Positions 35,762-57,935 of a stretch of DNA of 64,000 nt are shown in pieces; positions within the stretch are counted from its first letter, which is position 1; each line of letters starts with the position of its first letter. Both the position numbers and the translations under genes were made by a program. The notes under the pieces were generated by a model. That model worked only from the letters and a program-made list of their open reading frames with translations. It did not search any database and was not told the DNA's origin. The DNA is from Escherichia coli. GTDB taxonomy: Bacteria > Pseudomonadota > Gammaproteobacteria > Enterobacterales > Enterobacteriaceae. Location: NCBI RefSeq assembly GCF_022846255.1, contig NZ_AP025682.1. One strand, 5' to 3'.

Positions 35762-36758
35762 GCCCATCGTTTTTAGTGGCGCACAGCCCTCAGGTGAATT
35801 GACCATTGGTAACTACATGGGTGCGCTGCGTCAGTGGGTAAACATGCAGGATGACTACCATTGCATTTACTGTATCGTTGACCAACACGCGATCACCGTG
35901 CGCCAGGATGCACAGAAGCTGCGTAAAGCGACGCTGGATACGCTGGCGTTGTATCTGGCTTGTGGTATCGATCCTGAGAAAAGCACCATTTTTGTTCAGT
36001 CCCACGTGCCGGAACATGCGCAGTTAGGCTGGGCATTGAACTGCTATACCTACTTCGGCGAACTGAGCCGCATGACACAGTTTAAAGATAAATCTGCGCG
36101 TTATGCCGAGAACATCAACGCTGGTCTGTTTGACTATCCGGTGCTGATGGCAGCGGACATCCTGCTGTATCAAACTAATCTGGTGCCGGTGGGTGAAGAC
36201 CAGAAACAGCACCTGGAACTGAGCCGCGATATCGCCCAGCGTTTCAACGCGCTGTACGGCGATATCTTTAAGGTGCCAGAGCCGTTTATTCCGAAATCTG
36301 GCGCGCGCGTAATGTCGCTGCTGGAGCCGACCAAGAAGATGTCCAAGTCTGACGATAACCGCAATAACGTTATCGGCCTGCTGGAAGATCCGAAATCGGT
36401 AGTGAAGAAAATCAAACGCGCGGTCACTGACTCCGACGAGCCGCCGGTAGTTCGCTACGATGTGCAGAACAAAGCGGGCGTTTCCAACCTGCTGGATATC
36501 CTTTCTGCGGTAACGGGCCAGAGCATCCCGGAACTGGAAAAACAGTTCGAAGGCAAGATGTATGGTCATCTGAAAGGTGAAGTGGCTGATGCCGTTTCCG
36601 GTATGCTGACTGAATTGCAGGAACGTTACCACCGTTTCCGCAACGATGAAGCCTTCCTGCAACAGGTGATGAAAGACGGCGCAGAAAAAGCCAGCGCACA
36701 CGCTTCCCGTACGCTAAAAGCGGTGTACGAAGCGATTGGTTTTGTGGCGAAGCCGTAA
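35754..36758 (+). CDS. trpS: tryptophan--tRNA ligase
   Basis: 334-aa ORF with class I HIGH-type (TIGNYMG) and KMSKS motifs. Confidence 0.96.
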
Positions 36759-36773
36759 TTTAACATTAATGCC

Positions 36774-36799
36774 AAAAACCGGGGAAACCCGGTTTTTTT
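36774..36799 (+). terminator. rho-independent terminator of the dam-rpe-gph-trpS operon
   Basis: aaccggggaaacccggtt hairpin followed by T7 tract. Confidence 0.8.
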
Positions 36800-36917
36800 A
36801 TCCTCATTTGCAATAATCCGAAAAAATGTGAAGTGCCTCGCCGTTTCCACATCTCGCTGTTGCGCCTTATCTTCAAATTCCTGAAGATATAAACATTCAT
36901 TTTATTGAAAATATATT

Positions 36918-37823
36918 ATGCGTCGAACGTTTATCAAAAAAGAAGGCGTCGTTATCACGACACTGGCCCGTTATTTGTTGGGTGAAAAGTGCGGTAATCG
37001 ACTGAAAACCATAGATGAGCTGGCAACTGAATGCCGTTCATCGGTTGGCCTGACGCAGGCCGCGTTGAAAACGCTGGAATCAAGCGGAGCGATACGGATT
37101 GAACGCCGTGGGCGCAATGGCAGTTATCTGGTTGAGATGGATAACAAAGCATTGCTGACTCATGTGGATATCAACAACGTGGTATGTGCGATGCCCTTGC
37201 CCTATACCCGTTTGTACGAAGGCCTGGCGAGCGGATTGAAAGCCCAGTTTGATGGCATTCCTTTTTACTATGCGCATATGCGCGGCGCGGATATTCGCGT
37301 GGAGTGTTTACTTAACGGCGTGTATGACATGGCGGTGGTTTCGCGACTGGCGGCGGAAAGTTATCTCACGCAAAAAGGATTATGCCTCGCGCTGGAGTTG
37401 GGACCGCATACCTACGTTGGCGAGCACCAGTTGATTTGCCGTAAAGGCGAGTCCGCAAACGTGAAGCGCGTGGGGCTGGATAACCGTTCGGCAGATCAGA
37501 AAATCATGACCGATGTCTTTTTTGGCGATAGTGATGTGGAACGAGTCGATCTCTCTTATCACGAGAGTTTACAACGCATTGTTAAAGGCGATGTTGACGC
37601 GGTTATCTGGAACGTAGTGGCGGAAAACGAACTGACCATGCTGGGATTAGAAGCGACGCCGCTCACAGACGATCCGCGATTTTTACAGGCCACCGAAGCC
37701 GTGATCCTGACGCGAGTCGATGATTACCCAATGCAACAACTGCTGCGTGCAGTTGTTGATAAACATGCCCTGCTTGCTCATCAACAGCGAGTAGTCAGTG
37801 GGGAACAGGAACCCAGTTATTAA
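36918..37823 (+). CDS. yhfZ: putative transcriptional regulator YhfZ
   Basis: 301-aa ORF recognised as YhfZ; first gene of yhfZYXW-php-yhfUTS cluster. Confidence 0.85.
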   Translation: MRRTFIKKEGVVITTLARYLLGEKCGNRLKTIDELATECRSSVGLTQAALKTLESSGAIRIERRGRNGSYLVEMDNKALLTHVDINNVVCAMPLPYTRLYEGLASGLKAQFDGIPFYYAHMRGADIRVECLLNGVYDMAVVSRLAAESYLTQKGLCLALELGPHTYVGEHQLICRKGESANVKRVGLDNRSADQKIMTDVFFGDSDVERVDLSYHESLQRIVKGDVDAVIWNVVAENELTMLGLEATPLTDDPRFLQATEAVILTRVDDYPMQQLLRAVVDKHALLAHQQRVVSGEQEPSY

Positions 37824-37839
37824 ACGAAAGGCATCTGAT

Positions 37840-38202
37840 ATGGAAACCAGACTCAACCTGCTTTGCGATGCAGGCGTTATTGATAAGGACATCTGCAAAG
37901 GCATGATGCAGGTCGTCAATGTACTGGAAACAGAGTGCCATCTACCGGTGCGCAGTGAGCAAGGAACGATGGCGATGACACATATGGCGAGTGCACTGAT
38001 GCGCAGTCGCCGTGGTGAAGAAATAGAGCCGCTGGATGACGAATTGCTGGCGGAACTGGCGCAATCCAGCCACTGGCAAGCCGTTGTGCAATTGCATCAG
38101 GTGTTGTTGAAGGAATTTGCACTGGAAGTTAACCCGTGTGAAGAAGGCTATTTGCTGGCCAACCTTTATGGATTATGGATGGCTGCTAACGAAGAGGTTT
38201 GA
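37840..38202 (+). CDS. yhfY: PRD-domain-like protein YhfY
   Basis: 120 aa from ATG (METRLNLLCDAGVIDKD) at 37840; ORF-track start extended by 14 codons. Confidence 0.8.
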   Translation: METRLNLLCDAGVIDKDICKGMMQVVNVLETECHLPVRSEQGTMAMTHMASALMRSRRGEEIEPLDDELLAELAQSSHWQAVVQLHQVLLKEFALEVNPCEEGYLLANLYGLWMAANEEV

Positions 38203-38285
38203 AGCTCCCGATAAATCCACGTCGCACAACCTAAATATTCAAAAAAATGAATATTTAATTCAAGGAACAGAAACGAGGCAACAAG

Positions 38286-39449
38286 ATGTTTGTAGAAGCA
38301 TTGAAACGCCAGAACCCGGCGCTGATTTCCGCCGCACTAAGTTTGTGGCAGCAGGGCAAGATCGCCCCGGACAGTTGGGTGATCGACGTGGATCAAGTTC
38401 TGGAAAACGGCAAGCGGCTGATTGAGACGGCGCGGCTTTACGGCATTGAACTGTATCTGATGACCAAACAATTCGGTCGTAATCCGTGGCTGGCAGAAAA
38501 ACTGTTGGCTCTGGGCTACAGCGGCATTGTGGCGGTGGATTACAAAGAGGCGCGAGTCATGCGCCGCGCCTGTTTGCCGGTAGCGCATCAGGGGCATTTG
38601 GTACAAATCCCTTGTCATCAGGTGGTTGACGCCGTTGCACAGGGAACCGACGTCATCACCGTGTTTACTCTCGACAAAGCGCGGGAAGTTTCTGCGGCAG
38701 CGGTGGAGGCCGGACGTGTGCAGTCTGTGCTGCTCAAAGTTTATAGCGACGATGATTTTCTTTATCCGGGGCAGGAGAGCGGTTTTGTACAGCATTCGCT
38801 GCACGAGGTGGTTGCTGAAATCCAGAATCTGCCGGGGCTACATTTGGCGGGACTTACCCATTTCCCTTGCCTGCTTTGGGATGAGGCTGCCGGGAAAGTT
38901 TTGCCGACACCGAATCTTCACACGCTGGTACAAGCACGGGATCAACTGGCGAAATCTGGTATTGCGATTGAGCAACTGAACGCACCTTCAGCGACCAGCT
39001 GCACGTCGCTGCCATTGCTGGCGGAATACGGTGTGACTCATACCGAACCCGGTCATGCGCTGACGGGCACTATTCCGGCAAATCAACAGGGCGATCAGCC
39101 TGAACGTATCGCGATGCTCTGGTTAAGTGAAATCTCCCATCATTTCCGTGGCGACAGCTACTGCTACGGCGGCGGTTACTACCGTCGTGGTCACGCGCAA
39201 CATGCGCTGGTGTTTACGCCAGAGAATCAAAGCGTGACTGAAACATATCTCAACGCCGTGGATGACAGCAGTATCGACTACACCCTGCCGCTGGCAGGCG
39301 AGCATCCGGTAAGTAGTGCAGTGGTGCTCTGTTTTCGCACGCAGATTTTTATCACCCGTAGCGATGTGGTGCTGGTGTCCGGTATTCACCATGGCGAACC
39401 AGAAATAGTTGGTCGTTATGACAGCCTCGGCAACCCTCTGGAGGCGTAA
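38286..39449 (+). CDS. yhfX: alanine-racemase-fold PLP-dependent protein YhfX
   Basis: 387-aa ORF recognised as YhfX. Confidence 0.85.
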   Translation: MFVEALKRQNPALISAALSLWQQGKIAPDSWVIDVDQVLENGKRLIETARLYGIELYLMTKQFGRNPWLAEKLLALGYSGIVAVDYKEARVMRRACLPVAHQGHLVQIPCHQVVDAVAQGTDVITVFTLDKAREVSAAAVEAGRVQSVLLKVYSDDDFLYPGQESGFVQHSLHEVVAEIQNLPGLHLAGLTHFPCLLWDEAAGKVLPTPNLHTLVQARDQLAKSGIAIEQLNAPSATSCTSLPLLAEYGVTHTEPGHALTGTIPANQQGDQPERIAMLWLSEISHHFRGDSYCYGGGYYRRGHAQHALVFTPENQSVTETYLNAVDDSSIDYTLPLAGEHPVSSAVVLCFRTQIFITRSDVVLVSGIHHGEPEIVGRYDSLGNPLEA

Positions 39450-40676
39450 ATGGCGCGATTTGTGGTGTTAGTGATTGATAGCTTTGGCGTAGGGGCAATG
39501 AAAGATGTCACGTTGGTGCGTCCGCAGGATGCCGGGGCGAATACCTGTGGTCACATCCTGAGCCAGTTGCCGCATTTGCAGCTACCAACGCTGGAGACGC
39601 TGGGGCTAATCAACGCATTGGGTTATGCGCCTGGCGATATGCAGCCGTCAGACTCCGCAACCTGGGGCGTGGCAGAGCTGCAACATGAAGGTGGCGATAC
39701 CTTTATGGGGCATCAGGAGATTTTAGGTACGCGCCCATTACCGCCGCTGCGGATGCCCTTTCATGATGTGATTGACCGTGTTGAGCAGGCATTAGTTTCC
39801 GCTGGTTGGCAGGTGGAGCGCCGTGGCGATGATCTGCAATTTCTGTGGGTCAATCAGGCGGTTGCGATTGGCGATAATCTCGAGGCGGATTTAGGGCAGG
39901 TCTATAACATCACCGCCAATCTCTCTGTGATCTCTTTTGACGACGCAATCAAAATTGGTCGTATCGTGCGTGAGCAGGTACAGGTCGGTCGGGTCATTAC
40001 ATTTGGCGGCCTGTTAACCGACAGTCAACGCATTCTCGATGCCGCAGAAAGCAAAGAAGGGCGCTTTATTGGCATCAATGCGCCGCGTTCAGGCGCTTAT
40101 GACAACGGCTTCCAGGTCGTGCATATGGGCTACGGCGTCGATGAGAAAGTGCAGGTGCCGCAAAAACTGTATGAAGCGGGCGTGCCAACCGTGCTGGTGG
40201 GTAAGGTGGCGGATATCGTCAGCAATCCTTATGGCGTGAGCTGGCAAAACCTGGTGGATAGCCAGCGGATTATGGATATCACTCTCGACGAATTTAACAC
40301 CCATCCGACGGCGTTTATTTGCACCAATATCCAGGAAACCGACCTCGCTGGTCATGCAGAAGACGTCGCACGTTATGCCGAACGTTTGCAGGTCGTTGAC
40401 CGTAACCTTGCCCGGCTTGTTGAGGTGATGCAGCCAGATGATTGCCTGCTCGTGATGGCGGATCACGGTAACGATCCGACCATTGGTCACAGCCACCATA
40501 CCCGCGAAGTAGTGCCAGTGCTGGTTTATCAGCAAGGGCTGGTCGCTACGCAGCTCGGTGTGCGCACCACGCTTTCTGATGTGGGGGCCACCGTGTGTGA
40601 ATTTTTCCGCGCGCCACCGCCACAAAATGGTCGCTCTTTTCTTTCCTCCCTCCGGTTTGCAGGAGACACCCTATGA
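39450..40676 (+). CDS. yhfW: phosphopentomutase-like metalloenzyme YhfW
   Basis: 408-aa ORF recognised as YhfW; start abuts yhfX stop. Confidence 0.85.
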
Positions 40677-41551
40677 GTTTTGATCCGACGGGCTACACCT
40701 TCGCCCATGAGCATCTGCATATTGATCTTTCCGGCTTTAAAAACAACGTGGACTGCCGCCTTGATCAGTATGCGTTCATTTGCCAGGAGATGAACGACCT
40801 GATGGCCCGGGGCGTGCGTAATGTGATTGAGATGACCAACCGTTACATGGGGCGCAATGCGCAATTTATGCTCGATGTAATGCGCGAAACCGGGATCAAC
40901 GTGGTGGCCTGTACCGGTTATTACCAGGACGCGTTTTTCCCGGAACATGTGGCGACCCGCAGCGTGCAGGAACTGGCGCAGGAGATGGTCGATGAAATTG
41001 AGCAGGGTATCGATGGCACTGACCTGAAAGCCGGGATCATCGCGGAGATTGGCTCCAGCGAAGGGAAGATTACGCCGCTGGAAGAGAAGGTGTTTATTGC
41101 CGCCGCGCTGGCACATAACCAGACCGCACGCCCGATCTCCACGCATACGTCGTTCAGCACGATGGGGCTGGAGCAACTGGCTCTGTTGCAAGCCCACGGA
41201 GTTGATCTTTCGCGCGTCACCGTCGGCCACTGCGATCTGAAAGACAATCTCGACAACATTTTGAAGATGATCGATCTCGGCGCGTATGTGCAGTTCGACA
41301 CCATCGGCAAGAACAGTTACTACCCGGACGAAAAGCGCATTGCGATGCTCCATGCGCTACGTGACCGTGGGTTGCTGAACCGCGTCATGCTGTCGATGGA
41401 TATTACGCGGCGCTCTCATTTAAAAGCCAACGGTGGTTATGGCTATGACTTTTTATTGACCACCTTTATTCCGCAATTGCGCCAGTCAGGATTCAGTCAG
41501 GCCGATGTGGATGTGATGTTACGTGAAAATCCCTCTCAATTTTTCCAATAA
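40673..41551 (+). CDS. php: phosphotriesterase homology protein (amidohydrolase fold)
   Basis: 292-aa ORF with N-terminal HxH metal-ligand motif ([11 protein letters not shown]); ATGA overlap with yhfW. Confidence 0.88.
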
Positions 41552-41561
41552 GGACAGACTC

Positions 41562-41915
41562 ATGAAAAAGATTGGCGTTGCAGGCTTACAGCGTGAGCAG
41601 ATTAAAAAAACCATTGAAGCGACGGCTCCTGGCTGTTTTGAAGTTTTCATTCACAACGACATGGAAGCGGCAATGAAAGTGAAATCCGGGCAACTGGATT
41701 ACTACATCGGCGCGTGTAATACCGGTGCGGGCGCGGCATTGTCGATTGCCATCGCGGTGATTGGCTATAACAAAAGTTGCACCATTGCCAAGCCGGGCAT
41801 TAAAGCGAAAGACGAACATATCGCCAAAATGATCGCTGAAGGAAAAGTGGCGTTTGGCCTTTCCGTTGAGCACGTTGAACACGCGATTCCGATGCTGATT
41901 AACCATCTGAAATAA
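41562..41915 (+). CDS. yhfU: uncharacterised protein YhfU
   Basis: 117 aa from ATG (MKKIGVAGLQRE) at 41562; ORF-track start extended by 13 codons. Confidence 0.8.
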   Translation: MKKIGVAGLQREQIKKTIEATAPGCFEVFIHNDMEAAMKVKSGQLDYYIGACNTGAGAALSIAIAVIGYNKSCTIAKPGIKAKDEHIAKMIAEGKVAFGLSVEHVEHAIPMLINHLK

Positions 41916-41926
41916 AAGGCACGACT

Positions 41927-43231
41927 ATGGATCTGTATATTCAGATTATCGTGGTGGCGTGCCTGACGGGTATGACATCGCTTCTGGCGCATCGCTCGGC
42001 GGCCGTTTTTCATGACGGTATCCGCCCGATCCTGCCACAACTGATTGAAGGCTATATGAACCGTCGCGAGGCGGGGAGTATCGCTTTTGGTCTGAGCATT
42101 GGTTTTGTGGCCTCGGTGGGGATCTCTTTTACCCTGAAAACCGGGCTGCTCAACGCATGGTTACTCTTTCTTCCTACCGATATCCTCGGCGTACTGGCGA
42201 TAAACAGCCTGATGGCGTTTGGTCTTGGTGCTATCTGGGGAATATTGATCCTCACCTGTCTGTTGCCAGTAAACCAGCTGCTGACCGCGCTACCGGTGGA
42301 TGTATTAGGTAGCCTGGGGGAATTAAGCTCGCCGGTGGTTTCAGCTTTTGCACTGTTCCCGTTGGTGGCGATTTTCTACCAGTTTGGCTGGAAGCAAAGT
42401 CTGATCGCCGCCGTGGTGGTACTGATGACTCGTGTGGTGGTAGTGCGCTATTTCCCACATCTTAACCCTGAATCCATCGAAATCTTTATTGGCATGGTGA
42501 TGCTGCTGGGGATCGCAATAACTCATGACCTGCGTCATCGTGATGAAAATGATATCGATGCCAGCGGTATGTCGGTGTTTGAAGAGCGTACATCTCGGAT
42601 TATCAAAAACTTACCGTATATCGCCATCGTGGGTGCATTGATTGCTGCCGTTGCCAGCATGAAGATTTTCGCCGGTAGTGAAGTGTCGATCTTCACACTG
42701 GAGAAAGCGTACTCCGCAGGCGTAACGCCGGAACAATCGCAAACACTAATCAACCAGGCGGCACTGGCAGAATTTATGCGCGGGCTGGGTTTTGTGCCGT
42801 TGATTGCCACCACCGCGTTAGCCACCGGTGTGTATGCAGTTGCGGGCTTTACCTTTGTTTATGCGGTGGGCTATCTCTCGCCGAATCCGATGGTTGCAGC
42901 GGTATTAGGCGCAGTGGTTATTTCGGCGGAAGTCTTGCTGCTTCGTTCGATCGGCAAATGGTTGGGGCGCTACCCGTCGGTACGTAATGCGTCGGATAAC
43001 ATCCGTAACGCCATGAATATGCTGATGGAAGTGGCGTTGCTGGTCGGTTCGATCTTTGCGGCAATCAAAATGGCGGGCTATACCGGATTCTCTATTGCGG
43101 TTGCCATTTACTTCCTCAACGAATCCCTGGGCCGTCCGGTACAGAAAATGGCGGCACCGGTCGTAGCAGTAATGATCACCGGCATCCTGCTGAATGTTCT
43201 TTACTGGCTTGGCCTGTTCGTTCCGGCTTAA
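41927..43231 (+). CDS. yhfT: inner membrane transporter-like protein YhfT
   Basis: 434-aa polytopic membrane ORF. Confidence 0.85.
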   Translation: MDLYIQIIVVACLTGMTSLLAHRSAAVFHDGIRPILPQLIEGYMNRREAGSIAFGLSIGFVASVGISFTLKTGLLNAWLLFLPTDILGVLAINSLMAFGLGAIWGILILTCLLPVNQLLTALPVDVLGSLGELSSPVVSAFALFPLVAIFYQFGWKQSLIAAVVVLMTRVVVVRYFPHLNPESIEIFIGMVMLLGIAITHDLRHRDENDIDASGMSVFEERTSRIIKNLPYIAIVGALIAAVASMKIFAGSEVSIFTLEKAYSAGVTPEQSQTLINQAALAEFMRGLGFVPLIATTALATGVYAVAGFTFVYAVGYLSPNPMVAAVLGAVVISAEVLLLRSIGKWLGRYPSVRNASDNIRNAMNMLMEVALLVGSIFAAIKMAGYTGFSIAVAIYFLNESLGRPVQKMAAPVVAVMITGILLNVLYWLGLFVPA

Positions 43232-43242
43232 GGAAGGCACCT

Positions 43243-44328
43243 ATGAAGACGTTTCCTCTGCAAAGCCTGACGCTTATTGAGGCGCAGCAAAAGCAGTTTG
43301 CGCTGGTGGACACGATTTGCCGTCATTTTCCTGGCAGCGAGTTTCTTACCTGCGGTGATTTGGGCTTAACGCCGGGGCTAAATCAACCGCGCATTACCCA
43401 GCGTGTGGAACAGGTGCTGGCTGATGCATTTCACGCACAGGCCGCGGCGCTGGTACAGGGCGCGGGTACTGGCGCGATCCGTGCGGCACTGGCGGCTTTG
43501 CTCAAATCGGGGCAGCGTCTTCTGGTGCATGACGCGCCTGTTTACCCGACGACACGGGTTATTATTGAGCAGATGGGGCTAACGCTCATTACGGCTGATT
43601 TCAATGATCTGTCGGCACTGAAGCAGGTTGTTGACGAGCAACTACCGGATGCGGCGCTGGTGCAGCATACGCGCCAGCAGCCACAGGACGGCTACATTCT
43701 GGCAGATGTGCTGGCAACGTTGCGCTCGGCTGGCGTTCCTGCATTAACCGATGACAACTATGCGGTGATGAAAGTGGCGCGAATTGGCTGCGAATGCGGG
43801 GCAAATGTCTCGACTTTTTCCTGCTTCAAGCTGTTTGGGCCGGAGGGTGTTGGCGCGGTGGTAGGCGATGCCGATGTTATTAGTCGGATTCGCTCCACGC
43901 TCTATTCCGGCGGCAGCCAGATTCAGGGCGCTCAGGCGCTGGAAGTCTTGCGTGGGCTGGTGTTTGCGCCAGTGATGCACGCGGTGCAGGCGGGGGTATC
44001 TGAACGGTTGCTGGCCTTGCTCAACGGTGGCGCAGTGGCGGAAGTGAAAAGCGCCGTCATTGCCAATGCGCAGTCGAAGGTGTTGATTGTGGAGTTTCAT
44101 CAGCCGATTGCCGCCAGGGTGCTGGAAGAGGCGCAGAAACTCGGCGCGTTGCCTTACCCGGTGGGCGCGGAGTCGAAATATGAAATCCCGCCGCTCTTCT
44201 ATCGACTTTCCGGAACGTTTCGTCAGGCGAATCCACAATCAGAACATTGCACGATTCGCATTAATCCGAATCGCAGCGGTGAAGAGACGGTGTTGCGGAT
44301 TTTGCGTGAGATTATTGCCAGTATTTAA
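43243..44328 (+). CDS. yhfS: PLP-dependent aminotransferase-like protein YhfS
   Basis: 361-aa ORF recognised as YhfS. Confidence 0.85.
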   Translation: MKTFPLQSLTLIEAQQKQFALVDTICRHFPGSEFLTCGDLGLTPGLNQPRITQRVEQVLADAFHAQAAALVQGAGTGAIRAALAALLKSGQRLLVHDAPVYPTTRVIIEQMGLTLITADFNDLSALKQVVDEQLPDAALVQHTRQQPQDGYILADVLATLRSAGVPALTDDNYAVMKVARIGCECGANVSTFSCFKLFGPEGVGAVVGDADVISRIRSTLYSGGSQIQGAQALEVLRGLVFAPVMHAVQAGVSERLLALLNGGAVAEVKSAVIANAQSKVLIVEFHQPIAARVLEEAQKLGALPYPVGAESKYEIPPLFYRLSGTFRQANPQSEHCTIRINPNRSGEETVLRILREIIASI

Positions 44329-44369
44329 TCTTGTGAATGATGTTTTCGAAAAGAATGCAGAAATAAATA

Positions 44370-44393
44370 CGCCCCCGGGTAATCCCGAGGGCG
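44370..44393. terminator. possible bidirectional terminator hairpin between convergent yhfS and yhfL
   Basis: cgcccccggg-taat-cccgagggcg imperfect hairpin (one central mismatch) in the 106-bp spacer. Confidence 0.35.
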
Positions 44394-44434
44394 CCAGGCA
44401 ATTAAACCGACGTTAACCTATTTCTATCAATGGG

Positions 44435-44602
44435 TTACTGTGCAGTAGGACCGCAGCCACCAATGATTTTAGAAATAGAAATTGCCGGGTGTAGCAGGTA
44501 GTCGTAAGAGCAGTTCTTATCACGGTTTTCAATATGACCAGTACATGCAGTTAACGTAGCCAGTACTGCGCCTACCAGTGCAACTTTAATAAATTTGTTC
44601 AT
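44435..44602 (-). CDS. yhfL: small lipoprotein YhfL (55 aa)
   Basis: Manual translation: MNKFIKVALVGAVLATLTACTGHIENRDKNCSYDYLLHPAISISKIIGGCGPTAQ; lipobox LTAC; below ORF-track size cutoff. Confidence 0.85.
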   Translation of the reverse strand: MNKFIKVALVGAVLATLTACTGHIENRDKNCSYDYLLHPAISISKIIGGCGPTAQ

Positions 44603-44814
44603 TAACATTCCCTATGTATTATATAGATTAATATTCATTGATTATATGAATATAAACAGACTGCTCATTAAGAACGATACAGGATTAATTAATTGGTGCC
44701 AGTGACTGAATGACTTAATTTTGTAAGTCGCTGTAACGATAAATATGGCGGGTCAAAAATAAATGATGTTTGTTAATTAGTTGTTTTTTATTTGCTGAAT
44801 ATATAAAGAAAGTT

Positions 44815-44843
44815 GTAAAAGAAAAGGCCAGAATTCTCTGGCC
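44815..44843 (-). terminator. rho-independent terminator downstream of cysG
   Basis: ggccagaattctctggcc hairpin followed by T-rich run on minus strand, just after cysG stop. Confidence 0.55.
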
Positions 44844-44852
44844 CGGGTTAAA

Positions 44853-46226
44853 TTAATGGTTAGAGAACCAGTTCAGTTTATCGCGCAGGCCAACAACCCG
44901 ACCAATAATAATTAGCGATGGACTGTTCATTTGCTGCGCCAGTTCGCCCAGTTGTGTGAGCGTACCGTCAATCACGCGCTGCGTGACTGCCGTTCCGTTT
45001 TCGACAATTGCCACCGGCATTTCGCCAGGCATACCGTATTCAATCAGCTTTTGCTGAATAGTTGCAGCCTGATTCAGCCCCATATAAAACACCAGCGTCT
45101 GTTTTTCTGCCGCCAGGTTTTCCCAGTCCAGCTCGCCACCGGTTTTTAAGTGTCCAGTAATTAAGCGTACGCTCTGGGCATAATCGCGATGCGTGAGCGG
45201 AATACCCGAATAGGCAGAGCAACCAGAAGCTGCGGTAATACCCGGAACCACCGAGAATGGAATACCCGCGTTGCACAGTGTTTCCAGCTCTTCTCCGCCA
45301 CGCCCGAAAATAAACGGATCGCCGCCTTTCAGACGCACCACGCGTTTACCTTTTTGCGCTTCCCGCAGCAGGATCTGGTTAATCTCTTCCTGCGGTACGC
45401 AGTGGTATCCCGCGCGTTTGCCGACGAAAACGCGATCAGCATCGCGGCGTACCAGATTCATAATATCGTCAGAAACCAGACGGTCGTAGACCACCACATC
45501 AGCCTGCTGAATTTGTTGCAGACCTTTCAGTGTCAGCAGTCCGGCATCGCCCGGACCTGCACCAACCAGCACCACTTCACCGCGATGGTCGAGCGGTTCG
45601 TTGATTAACTGTTCGGTGGTTTCAGTAATGGCTTTCTGATCGTTGTTGGCCAGCGACTGCGCCAGGCGGTCGTTAACGAATAATTTCTCCCAGAAACGGC
45701 GACGCTCACCCATCGTGGCGAACTGTTGTTTCACTCGCCCGCGTAATTGCCCGGCGTATTTCGCTACCTGGCCCAGATGTAACGGCAGCAGTGATTCAAG
45801 TTTTTCGCGCAACAGGCGCGCCAGAACCGGAGAGGTGCCGCCAGAGGAGACCGCTACCATGAGCGGCGAGCGGTCAATAATCGACGGCATAATAAAGCTG
45901 GCGGCTTTCGGCGCATCGACCACGTTACAGAAGATGCGACGAGCTTCAGCGGCTTCGCTGACGCGCTGGTTAAGCACGTCATCATCTGTCGCTGCAATCG
46001 CCAGCCAGCAGGTGTCGAGAAGGCTTTCATCAAATGGCCCTTCGACGAGGGTTAACATGCCTGCATCTGCCCATGCGGTGAACTGTGGAATAAACGCTAA
46101 TGCATTCACCGTTAAGCGAGCGCCTGCGTCTAACAGCAACCTTGCTTTGCGTTCCGCGACATCACCACCGCCGACAATCAGACAGTCGCGATCGCGTAAT
46201 TGGCAAAATATAGGCAAATGATCCAC
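44853..46226 (-). CDS. cysG: siroheme synthase (multifunctional)
   Basis: 457-aa ORF recognised as CysG. Confidence 0.95.
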
Positions 46227-57302: not shown

Positions 57303-57935
57303 TTAACGAGTGCCGTAAACGACGATGGTTTTACCGTGTGCGGAGATCAGGTTCTGATCTTCCAGCATCTTCAGAATGCGCCCCACTGTTTCACGAGAAC
57401 AGCCGACAATCTGACCGATTTCCTGACGGGTAATTTTGATTTGCATACCGTCCGGGTGAGTCATAGCATCCGGTTGTTTTGCCAGATTCAGCAGAGTCTG
57501 TGCAATGCGGCCCGTCACGTCGAGGAACGCCAGGTTGCCCACTTTCTCTGAAGTGACTTGCAGACGACGCGCCATCTGTGCAGACAGACGCATCAGAATG
57601 TCCGGGTTTACCTGAATCAATTGGCGAAATTTTTTGTACGAAATTTCAGCCACTTCACAGGCGGTTTTCGCACGTACCCATGCGCTACGTTCCTGGCCCT
57701 CTTCAAACAGGCCCAGTTCGCCAATAAAATCACCCTGATTCAGATAGGAGAGGATCATTTCTTTACCCTCTTCGTCTTTGATCAGCACTGCCACAGAGCC
57801 TTTAACGATGTAGTACAGCGTTTCCGCTTTTTCACCCTGGTGAATAAGCGTGCTCTTGGATGGGTACTTATGAATGTGGCAATGAGACAAGAACCATTCG
57901 AGAGTCGGGTCTGTTTGCGGTTTGCCAAGCACCAT
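57303..57935 (-). CDS. crp: cAMP receptor protein
   Basis: 210-aa ORF; cNMP-binding domain plus C-terminal HTH ([20 protein letters not shown]). Confidence 0.97.

Follow-up and report, generated by a model that had tools for sequence, protein, structure and literature searches.

The closest described counterparts of the eight-gene cluster yhfZ, yhfY, yhfX, yhfW, php, yhfU, yhfT, yhfS, which occupies positions 36918-44328 of the 64,000-nucleotide stretch of Escherichia coli DNA analyzed here (the window), are pathways for amino sugar acids and a type of enterococcal gene cluster. In the Dga operon, an amino-aldonic acid is taken up and phosphorylated by the phosphotransferase system (PTS), deaminated by an enzyme that depends on pyridoxal 5'-phosphate (PLP) to a 2-keto-3-deoxy-phospho-acid, and passed to an aldolase of the 2-keto-3-deoxy-6-phosphogluconate (KDPG) type. 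In the oxidative chitin pathway of Pseudoalteromonas (OngB deacetylase, OngC, KdgK), the fold-type III PLP enzyme OngC deaminates D-glucosaminate to 2-keto-3-deoxygluconate (KDG) in a step described as 'akin to D-amino acid catabolism' (PMC9537276), and the DGL/DgaE reaction is the same deamination on the phosphorylated acid (PMC9529869). An Enterococcus faecium cluster is annotated as SFCGS glycine-rich protein, DUF4312, DUF4311, DUF4310, amidohydrolase, DgaE-family lyase and KDPG aldolase, followed by a fructose-type PTS Enzyme IIC (EIIC) gene and a BglG-family regulator (PMC11934601). DgaE, OngC and the enterococcal cluster serve as precedents for the chemistry and architecture that we propose for the yhf cluster.

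We propose, with a probability of roughly 45%, that the yhf cluster encodes a PTS-coupled system, under the control of a repressor, that breaks down a sugar-derived alpha-amino compound, either an amino-sugar-acid or a lactone-like compound, the most likely substrate class being a 2-amino-2-deoxy-aldonic acid, its lactone or lactam, or a glycoside yielding one. The cluster itself has long been known as uncharacterized; it appears to represent a PTS-fed pathway for amino sugar acids in a non-canonical form. The initial annotation, made from the sequence alone, had suggested processing of a phosphorylated amino sugar or amino acid derivative, which is compatible with everything found and can be sharpened, although the chemistry itself stays a proposal; the PTS link, the RpiB-like nature of YhfU and the accessory status of yhfS are additions to it.

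The logic proposed for the yhf cluster is that of the Dga operon, but the components are not homologous. Where Dga has a mannose-family Enzyme II (EII), yhf has YhfU and YhfT, and YhfX is a fold-type III enzyme; the yhf cluster adds Php, YhfW, a GntR-type regulator and a lone PTS regulation domain (PRD) protein, and within the window it contains no mannose-family EII, no DgaE-family lyase and no KDPG aldolase. YhfX is likened by fold type to the OngC enzyme acting on a 2-amino-2-deoxy-aldonate, and a further likeness to the chitin pathway is that Vibrionaceae yhf genes lie beside a secreted protein with a family 5/12 carbohydrate-binding module (CBM5/12) and a Lac/Cel-type PTS. The Ong pathway differs in that it uses an SSS transporter, its kinase acts after deamination, and it has no phosphotriesterase (PTE)-family, phosphomutase, DUF2620 or YhfT part. 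By annotated architecture, the enterococcal SFCGS/DUF4310-4312 cluster (EF_0829/AHA_3910 type) is the nearest in its parts list: a small Cys/Gly-loop protein, novel membrane proteins, an amidohydrolase, a PLP enzyme, an aldolase and a PRD regulator. Among the NCBIfam models, YhfY is closest to TIGR03582, the PRD protein of this cluster type, which is likewise uncharacterized.

Gene set and its conservation

Eight intact, co-directional genes are given both by the open reading frame (ORF) listing and by RefSeq for the E. coli genome that matches best:

36918..37823, + strand: yhfZ, GntR-type winged helix-turn-helix regulator with a YhfZ_C ligand-binding-like domain
37840..38202, + strand: yhfY, stand-alone PRD domain
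38286..39449, + strand: yhfX, fold-type III (alanine-racemase-fold) PLP enzyme
39450..40676, + strand: yhfW, phosphopentomutase-like metalloenzyme of the alkaline-phosphatase superfamily
40673..41551, + strand: php, binuclear-metal amidohydrolase of the phosphotriesterase/lactonase family
41562..41915, + strand: yhfU, DUF2620, protein modeled with an RpiB/LacAB fold
41927..43231, + strand: yhfT, polytopic membrane protein with its own family, PF10797
43243..44328, + strand: yhfS, fold-type I PLP enzyme, accessory

Successive gaps from yhfZ to yhfS are 16, 83, 0, -4, 10, 11 and 11 nt, the -4 nt yhfW-php junction being an ATGA overlap. The tight, co-directional spacing described in the initial annotation is thus borne out; of the several junctions of 0-4 nt that it mentions, two are found (0 and -4). 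Profile and PDB matches bear out the gene and family identities that it gave for all eight.

For the comparison across lineages, a DUF2620 profile was scanned against ~100,000 bacterial and archaeal representatives, one genome per species, the YhfT alignment being too divergent as a seed. DUF2620 relatives were found in 242 species, and 80 loci were returned, each of which was scored with the eight window proteins. The full set of eight genes is found in another order in Vagococcus, Aerococcaceae and Jeotgalibaca, and seven of them, without yhfZ and again in another order, in an Erysipelotrichaceae metagenome-assembled genome and in the spirochaete Entomospira. The set of PRD, PTE, DUF2620, YhfT, YhfX and YhfW proteins is also present, at a YhfT identity of just 26-38%, in Vibrionaceae, Aeromonas and metagenome contigs. 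The orders in the Proteobacterial lineages are:

Enterobacteriaceae: ZYXW-php-UTS
Most Yersinia: ZYX-php-UT (yhfW missing in 8 of 9 species, yhfS missing)
Vibrionaceae and Aeromonas: ZY-php-UT-XW (no yhfS)
Enterovibrio: two loci, [ZY-php-UT] and [UT-XW]

The genome-context comparison that the initial annotation had called for thus finds the same genes in shuffled order across three phyla, which is strong evidence of one function. The recurrent set consists of YhfY, Php, YhfU, YhfT, YhfX and YhfW, and yhfS is accessory.

Eight Yersinia loci (L044-L046, L049-L051, L053 and L057) lack yhfW, php following yhfX after ~60-180 nt, and Y. nurmii (L052) keeps the gene; the phosphomutase is therefore dispensable in some lineages. 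The split loci of Enterovibrio are L056, L060 and L062 on the one hand and L061, L076 and L080 on the other, each with its own U-T pair.

It could be argued that the cluster is a cryptic or decaying remnant, or a run of functionally unrelated neighbors, one variant being that Php is a detoxifying phosphotriesterase. The searched literature reports no phenotype or inducer, genes are split in some loci (e.g., C. koseri L022, L043, L079), and the region is missing from 343 of the 5426 E. coli genomes that are complete, the other 5083 (~94%) having it. However, none of the eight frames is broken here or in most of 5061 genomes, the genes recur in shuffled order across three phyla, operator-like palindromes are conserved (see below), and Php scores 97 bits against a cutoff of 500 for the organophosphate hydrolase model NF041153, so that we regard such an explanation as very improbable.

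YhfU, YhfT and YhfY and their proposed link to the phosphotransferase system

The evidence for this link comes from high-GC relatives, in which DUF2620 and a PRD domain are joined in one protein of 267 aa; six such YhfU-YhfY fusion protein clusters were found. The N-terminal part of the fusion aligns with the YhfU family (hhalign probability 99.7%, E 6e-27) and the C-terminal part with the YhfY family over its full length (97.9%, E 3e-13). An operon encoding the fusion, YhfW, YhfX, HPr and Enzyme I, in this order, is present in all four distinct high-GC loci (L094, L096/L097, L098 and L099; G+C 0.64-0.70), with overlapping junctions throughout in L096/L097 and at YhfX-HPr in L094, and the translated HPr proteins of L096 and L098 carry the GLHARP active-site motif. 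Beside the operon lie YhfT, a PTE-family gene (three of the four loci), an AroE-like dehydrogenase and a GntR/UTRA regulator; no EIIA, EIIB or EIIC of a known family was called in L094 or L096/L097. In L096/L097 (TIGR01182, 174 bits versus a cutoff of 156) and in L098, the next gene after Enzyme I encodes an Eda aldolase, L094 ending before this position and L099 having none there. L096 also harbors a NagB-II-like SIS protein, a class III aminotransferase, a YhfS-like protein, a furanose-type ABC system and a GFO/MocA dehydrogenase; relatives have dehydrogenases of GFO/MocA, short-chain dehydrogenase/reductase (SDR) and AroE-like types near the genes.

The YhfU family (DUF2620) has an invariant cysteine, Cys52, in the loop DYYxGAC(N)TGxGxA. 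In the AlphaFold model (pLDDT 96), YhfU consists of five strand-helix units with Cys52 ending strand 3 and takes an RpiB/LacAB-like fold, and weak profile alignments put Cys52 on the cysteine of the RpiB C-G-T-G motif. In every compared locus with a recognizable yhfU, isolated U-T pairs included, the gene stands directly upstream of yhfT, whose product appears to resemble no solved structure in fold. YhfU shares with Enzyme IIB proteins the genetic coupling to a membrane permease, HPr and Enzyme I (the last two in the high-GC loci), but its cysteine does not lie in the loop after the first strand.

YhfY matches TIGR03582 with an E value of 2.4e-6 (27.9 bits versus a cutoff of 69) and, weakly, the Pfam PRD family (PF00874, E 0.004); distant homologues have precomputed PF00874 hits, and YhfY relatives match PRD2 of LicT and GlcT. 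His48 and Arg55, within a THxAxAxxR motif, are invariant in 16 aligned sequences, a His/Arg motif that likens YhfY to the PRD-containing PTS regulators (BglG/LicT, MtlR/LicR-type). MtlR-type regulators pair a PRD with a small Cys-carrying (EIIB-like) domain, and the YhfU-YhfY fusion resembles this pairing. In contrast to these regulators, YhfY has no RNA- or DNA-binding domain, so that DNA binding would fall to the separate YhfZ, and Proteobacterial YhfY keeps one of the two PRD histidines, the second being retained in Firmicute and spirochaete YhfY and replaced by Asn in Proteobacteria.

It is possible, though doubtful, that YhfU and YhfT constitute an unrecognized type of PTS permease, in which a phospho-cysteine carrier of RpiB/LacAB fold would work with a translocator unlike any solved EIIC. 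Such a permease would be fed from HPr, possibly via the PRD histidine of YhfY in place of a classical EIIA, and an amino-sugar acid or lactone in phosphorylated form would pass from it to a route through Php, YhfW, YhfX (with YhfS where present) and an aldolase; its sister system would be the enterococcal SFCGS/DUF4310-4312 clusters.

The main rival to the PTS-coupled reading of the cluster, which we consider unlikely, is that YhfU is a true RpiB/LacAB sugar-phosphate isomerase and YhfT an ordinary secondary carrier, for example of an organophosphate or amino sugar; YhfW (sugar-1-phosphate to sugar-5/6-phosphate) and YhfU (aldose to ketose) would then act consecutively, and the PTS proteins of the relatives would act only on expression via the PRD. 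The fold evidence favors this rival, but Pfam LacAB_rpiB (PF02502) is matched at just E 0.16 and PDB profile matches lie at E 0.4-0.9, below the RpiB/LacAB thresholds. The active site of RpiB comprises an N-terminal Asp/His and a C-terminal Arg cluster. YhfU, at 117 aa versus about 150, is shorter by ~30 residues, and among 32 sequences it has no invariant His or Arg to replace the N-terminal Asp/His or the C-terminal Arg phosphate site of RpiB. Unlike the RpiB/LacAB isomerases, YhfU has a membrane protein as its partner in every case and forms a fusion with a PRD in some, both of which would be unusual for a soluble isomerase, and the source of the phosphate would be left unexplained. The fusion, the membrane pairing and the missing kinase thus favor a PTS carrier over an isomerase, and the fold evidence the reverse.

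Enzymes of the cluster

Structures have been solved for three of the cluster proteins, Php, YhfX and YhfS, and the entries for YhfX (PDB 4KBX) and YhfS (PDB 4J8L) are titled 'uncharacterized'. YhfX homologues carry PF01168 and PF21279, and searched against the PDB the family profile finds alanine racemase (E 5e-4) and D-threonine aldolase (E 0.026). Lys61 is invariant in the family alignment and is the candidate PLP lysine; against the racemase equivalog Orr, YhfX scores 32 bits, below the cutoff of 480. YhfS matches Pfam YhfS-like_C at 2e-43, and its family profile finds cystathionine gamma-synthase and methionine gamma-lyase in the PDB (E 4e-8); against the MJ0158/DgaE-type model TIGR03576 it reaches 20 bits (cutoff 304). 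For neither YhfX nor YhfS did the PDB profile searches give a reaction type.

YhfW and Php belong to the superfamilies of DeoB and of the PTE-family phospho-sugar lactonases (Lmo2620, MS53_0025), respectively, with the metal and nucleophile motifs kept, but both form separate subfamilies and fall under the equivalog cutoffs. YhfW matches the phosphopentomutase-type model NF009049 (737 bits versus a cutoff of 254) and fails the DeoB models NF003766 (181 versus 256) and TIGR01696 (142 versus 341), and PDB phosphopentomutases align only to its residues 239-402, the C-terminal core. The motifs DSFGVG (Asp10), DTFMGHQE (Thr84), ADHGNDP and GHSHHTRE are present, which we take to correspond to the metal-ligand and Thr-nucleophile residues of DeoB. 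Php, the protein of PDB 1BF6 and 4LEF, matches NF007373 at 651 bits and has all six metal-ligand residues (His12, His14, Glu125, His158, His186 and Asp243); in addition to the organophosphate hydrolase model it fails the phospho-furanose lactonase model NF045706 (95 versus 630 bits). No recognizable kinase is present in any version of the cluster examined, yet YhfW keeps its phosphomutase motifs, which speaks for the PTS-coupled reading.

The characterized PDB proteins closest to Php are lactonases of the SsoPox type (138 bits). Together with the nearness of YhfS to gamma-family Cys/Met enzymes and of YhfX to alanine racemase, this would suit a substrate that is no sugar, namely an alpha-amino acid that is cyclic or carries a gamma-hydroxy group (such as a lactone of the homoserine-lactone or 4-hydroxyglutamate type, or a lactam), whose ring Php would open before racemization by YhfX and transamination or elimination by YhfS, the aldolase of the relatives being a 4-hydroxy-2-oxoglutarate aldolase. 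By NCBIfam name the Eda family comprises bifunctional 4-hydroxy-2-ketoglutarate (KHG)/KDPG aldolases, and amidase-like and M20 genes in Firmicute versions and one YhfT-amidase fusion point the same way. Such a substrate, however, accounts neither for the conservation of a phosphomutase whose catalytic motifs are intact nor for the HPr and Enzyme I genes within the operon, the PRD protein, and the sugar-type neighbors (the NagB-II-like protein, a furanose-type ABC binding protein, the GFO/MocA dehydrogenase, and a Lac/Cel-type PTS with a family 1 glycoside hydrolase, GH1), and we consider it quite improbable.

Proposed pathway

From the computed anatomy, conservation, folds, fusions and neighborhoods we infer every chemical step, and the substrate, of the following scheme for a sugar-derived alpha-amino compound. 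YhfZ, judging from the position and conservation of the sites, would bind TTCA-N6-TGAA palindromes 5' of yhfZ and yhfX and repress both units. YhfT would move the compound across the membrane, and a phosphoryl group would pass from phosphoenolpyruvate (PEP) via Enzyme I, HPr and YhfU Cys52 to the substrate, the same flow being sensed by YhfY via His48, which may modulate YhfZ or the transporter; the phosphoryl acceptor would thus be YhfU, YhfY or both. This route through YhfU and YhfY is proposed because the two are fused, and HPr and Enzyme I lie in the operon, in relatives, and because no kinase is found. Php would open a lactone, lactam or ester ring; YhfW would shift the phosphate through a Thr84 phospho-enzyme; YhfX, plus YhfS where present, would epimerize or deaminate at the amino carbon; and the resulting 2-keto-3-deoxy-phospho-acid would be split by a KDPG-type aldolase, encoded in the operon in high-GC relatives and outside the cluster in this window.

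Several observations weigh against this scheme. No dehydrogenase or aldolase belongs to the window cluster, and no EIIA was seen. HPr and Enzyme I were found beside the genes in the high-GC lineage only and could serve PRD regulation alone. Because yhfW is missing from eight of nine Yersinia species, yhfS from Vibrionaceae and Yersinia, and because Enterovibrio splits its genes into [ZY-php-UT] and [UT-XW], a linear pathway may be wrong in order or content.

The substrate had been described in the initial annotation as not established, in agreement with which we found no assignment in the searched literature, RefSeq product names or PDB titles. The RefSeq product names of the cluster genes are generic and name no substrate; yhfX occurs in the searched literature in gene lists without a function, and YhfZ as a 'putative transcription factor' hit of a resistance screen and nowhere else. 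No published substrate or pathway was found in a full-text literature search that was largely without subscription journals, so a published answer may nevertheless exist.

Candidate operators and transcription units

YhfZ matches the GntR-type equivalog NF041241 (373 bits versus a cutoff of 260), and its homologues carry PF14502 and PF14503. Three inverted repeats with a TTCA-N6-TGAA core are candidate operators in the cluster:

36868..36889: O1, candidate YhfZ operator TATCTTCA-N6-TGAAGATA, perfect 8-nt arms
36892..36913: O2, weaker candidate operator ACATTCATTTTATTGAAAAT, just 5' of the yhfZ ATG, with its TTCA-N6-TGAA match at 36896
38232..38257: O3, candidate operator TAAATATTCA-N6-TGAATATTTA in the yhfY-yhfX spacer, perfect 10-nt arms

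The core has four matches in the 64-kb window versus 1.18 expected, and three of them fall in the two regulatory regions of the cluster, two 5' of yhfZ and one 5' of yhfX. The fourth, at 57831-57844 inside a 210-aa frame on the - strand (57303-57935), is probably a chance occurrence. Among the fetched loci with a complete yhfZ, 57 of 67 harbor the core within -160 to +30 of the yhfZ start, a count inflated by relatedness among the loci, where 0.013 per 190 nt is the background level. Taken together, the unique sites give the consensus aAtaTTCAatttAaTGAAGATa. The palindrome persists from Vibrio, Photobacterium and Aeromonas to Escherichia, whereas the neighboring spacer sequence does not. The tandem site O2 is kept in Escherichia, Citrobacter, Trabulsiella, Buttiauxella and Cedecea, and O3 hardly varies between the Y-X spacers of Escherichia, Citrobacter, Enterobacter, Trabulsiella and Pluralibacter and is degenerate in Yersinia, Cedecea and Ewingella. 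In the second loci of Enterovibrio, which lack yhfZ, the palindrome precedes yhfU. The palindrome is thus a candidate operator, and its regulator is probably YhfZ. At L081, a similar site precedes a Lac/Cel-type PTS operon.

A single operon had been suggested in the initial annotation. The co-directional genes, the short gaps and the lack of a strong internal terminator (weak terminator-like matches are all that was found in the cluster) speak for it; the 83-nt yhfY-yhfX spacer with its own palindrome does not, nor does the operon table reproduced in PMC4448311, in which yhfX-yhfS form one unit and yhfZY is not included. Because the palindrome in this spacer is of the same type as those 5' of yhfZ, two transcription units under one regulator, yhfZY and yhfXW-php-yhfUTS, appear likelier than one, in agreement with the operon table, and O3 probably marks a second promoter region.

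Other candidate signals were rejected. A CRP site, TGTGAAGTGCCTCGCC at 36827, belongs to 26 window matches versus 25.7 expected by chance; its TGTGA half alone is conserved across genera. A riboswitch or attenuator was dropped since no Rfam family matches at E below 0.1 across 36500-45000. A BIME-type attenuator (bacterial interspersed mosaic element) has been described near yhfZ (PMC2965389) and is not evident in this stretch, where a simple terminator hairpin alone is seen near yhfZ.

Boundaries and strain variation

The cluster is delimited by two hairpins:

36774..36797, + strand: trpS terminator hairpin AAAAACCGGG/CCCGGTTTTT followed by a T run, an inverted repeat with 10-nt perfect arms; upstream boundary
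44369..44394: GC-rich hairpin between yhfS and the convergent yhfL, 11-pair stem with 9 GC pairs and a T tail on the - strand; downstream boundary

Its G+C content, 0.51-0.57, is the same as that of the flanks. The best full-length identity of the cluster among complete E. coli genomes is 98.5%, to an African green monkey strain, and because no complete genome exceeds this value the window may derive from a somewhat divergent Escherichia lineage.

Downstream, yhfS is directly followed by yhfL and cysG (window 44329-44860). In E. coli K-12, the frlABCDR fructoselysine operon lies between yhfL and yhfS; it is absent from the window and from the best-matching genome. The 532-nt stretch 44329-44860 is just 80-90% identical to 4655 complete E. 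coli genomes, compared with 95-99% to most for the yhf cluster, and is a variable junction. Some E. coli gene calls join Php and YhfT, YhfU and YhfT, or YhfT and YhfS (proteins P0006, P0018, P0076, P0003, P0012 and P0109), which points to deletions or frameshifts of the cluster in particular strains, or to artefacts of gene calling.

Neighboring genes in other lineages

In Vibrionaceae, the cluster adjoins a Lac/Cel-type PTS (EIIB, EIIC, EIIA) and a DUF7916 protein (296 aa; L064:4708-5598), which always accompanies EIIB-EIIC-EIIA and has homologues in L059, L063, L065, L066, L079, L081 and L084. The combination of this PTS, DUF7916 and GH1 was kept as a lead only, being recurrent in Vibrionaceae and absent from enterobacterial loci. 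Entomospira, L005 and L007 have isolated PTS EIIC or GH1 genes close by. Directly upstream in Entomospira (L092:3431-9612), and co-directional, are genes for PTS EIIA and EIIC, a GH1 phospho-beta-glycosidase, a tagatose-bisphosphate aldolase and a PfkB-type kinase, and LacA and LacB may be encoded by two small upstream frames (147 and 169 aa); this block looks like an ordinary lactose/tagatose operon next door.

A secreted protein of ~730 aa, with a C-terminal CBM5/12 chitin-binding module and a large unannotated N-terminal region, adjoins the cluster at L063:14313-16508 and occurs also at L081, L079, L059, L064, L089 and L055, in several Photobacterium and Vibrio species as well as Enterobacter sp. 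BIGb0383; an extracellular role in producing the substrate is possible. In Firmicutes the cluster additionally has a truncated amidase-signature protein of ~340 aa (L088:17393-18424, L011, L090, L091), an M20 amidohydrolase or a HAD phosphatase, and the YhfT-amidase fusion is a single Clostridium citroniae protein of 768 aa (AFDB G5HJH7). The Vibrionaceae and Firmicute neighbors suggest glycan-derived, amide-bearing precursors, no neighbor being universal. The occurrence of YhfT beside an Orn/Lys/Arg decarboxylase-family gene in L004 was judged to be a housekeeping neighborhood.

Implications

The yhf cluster is among the largest remaining gene blocks of E. coli without a function, and the comparative evidence narrows the open question to whether phosphate passes from HPr onto Cys52 of YhfU or His48 of YhfY. 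It also poses the questions of whether YhfZ acts on three defined palindromes, and whether the inducers are amino-aldonic acids or lactones, such as those from oxidative chitin or glycan breakdown. If the PTS reading is right, it would bring a new component type into a system regarded as fully catalogued in E. coli, and a function would be gained for two domain families, DUF2620 and PF10797.

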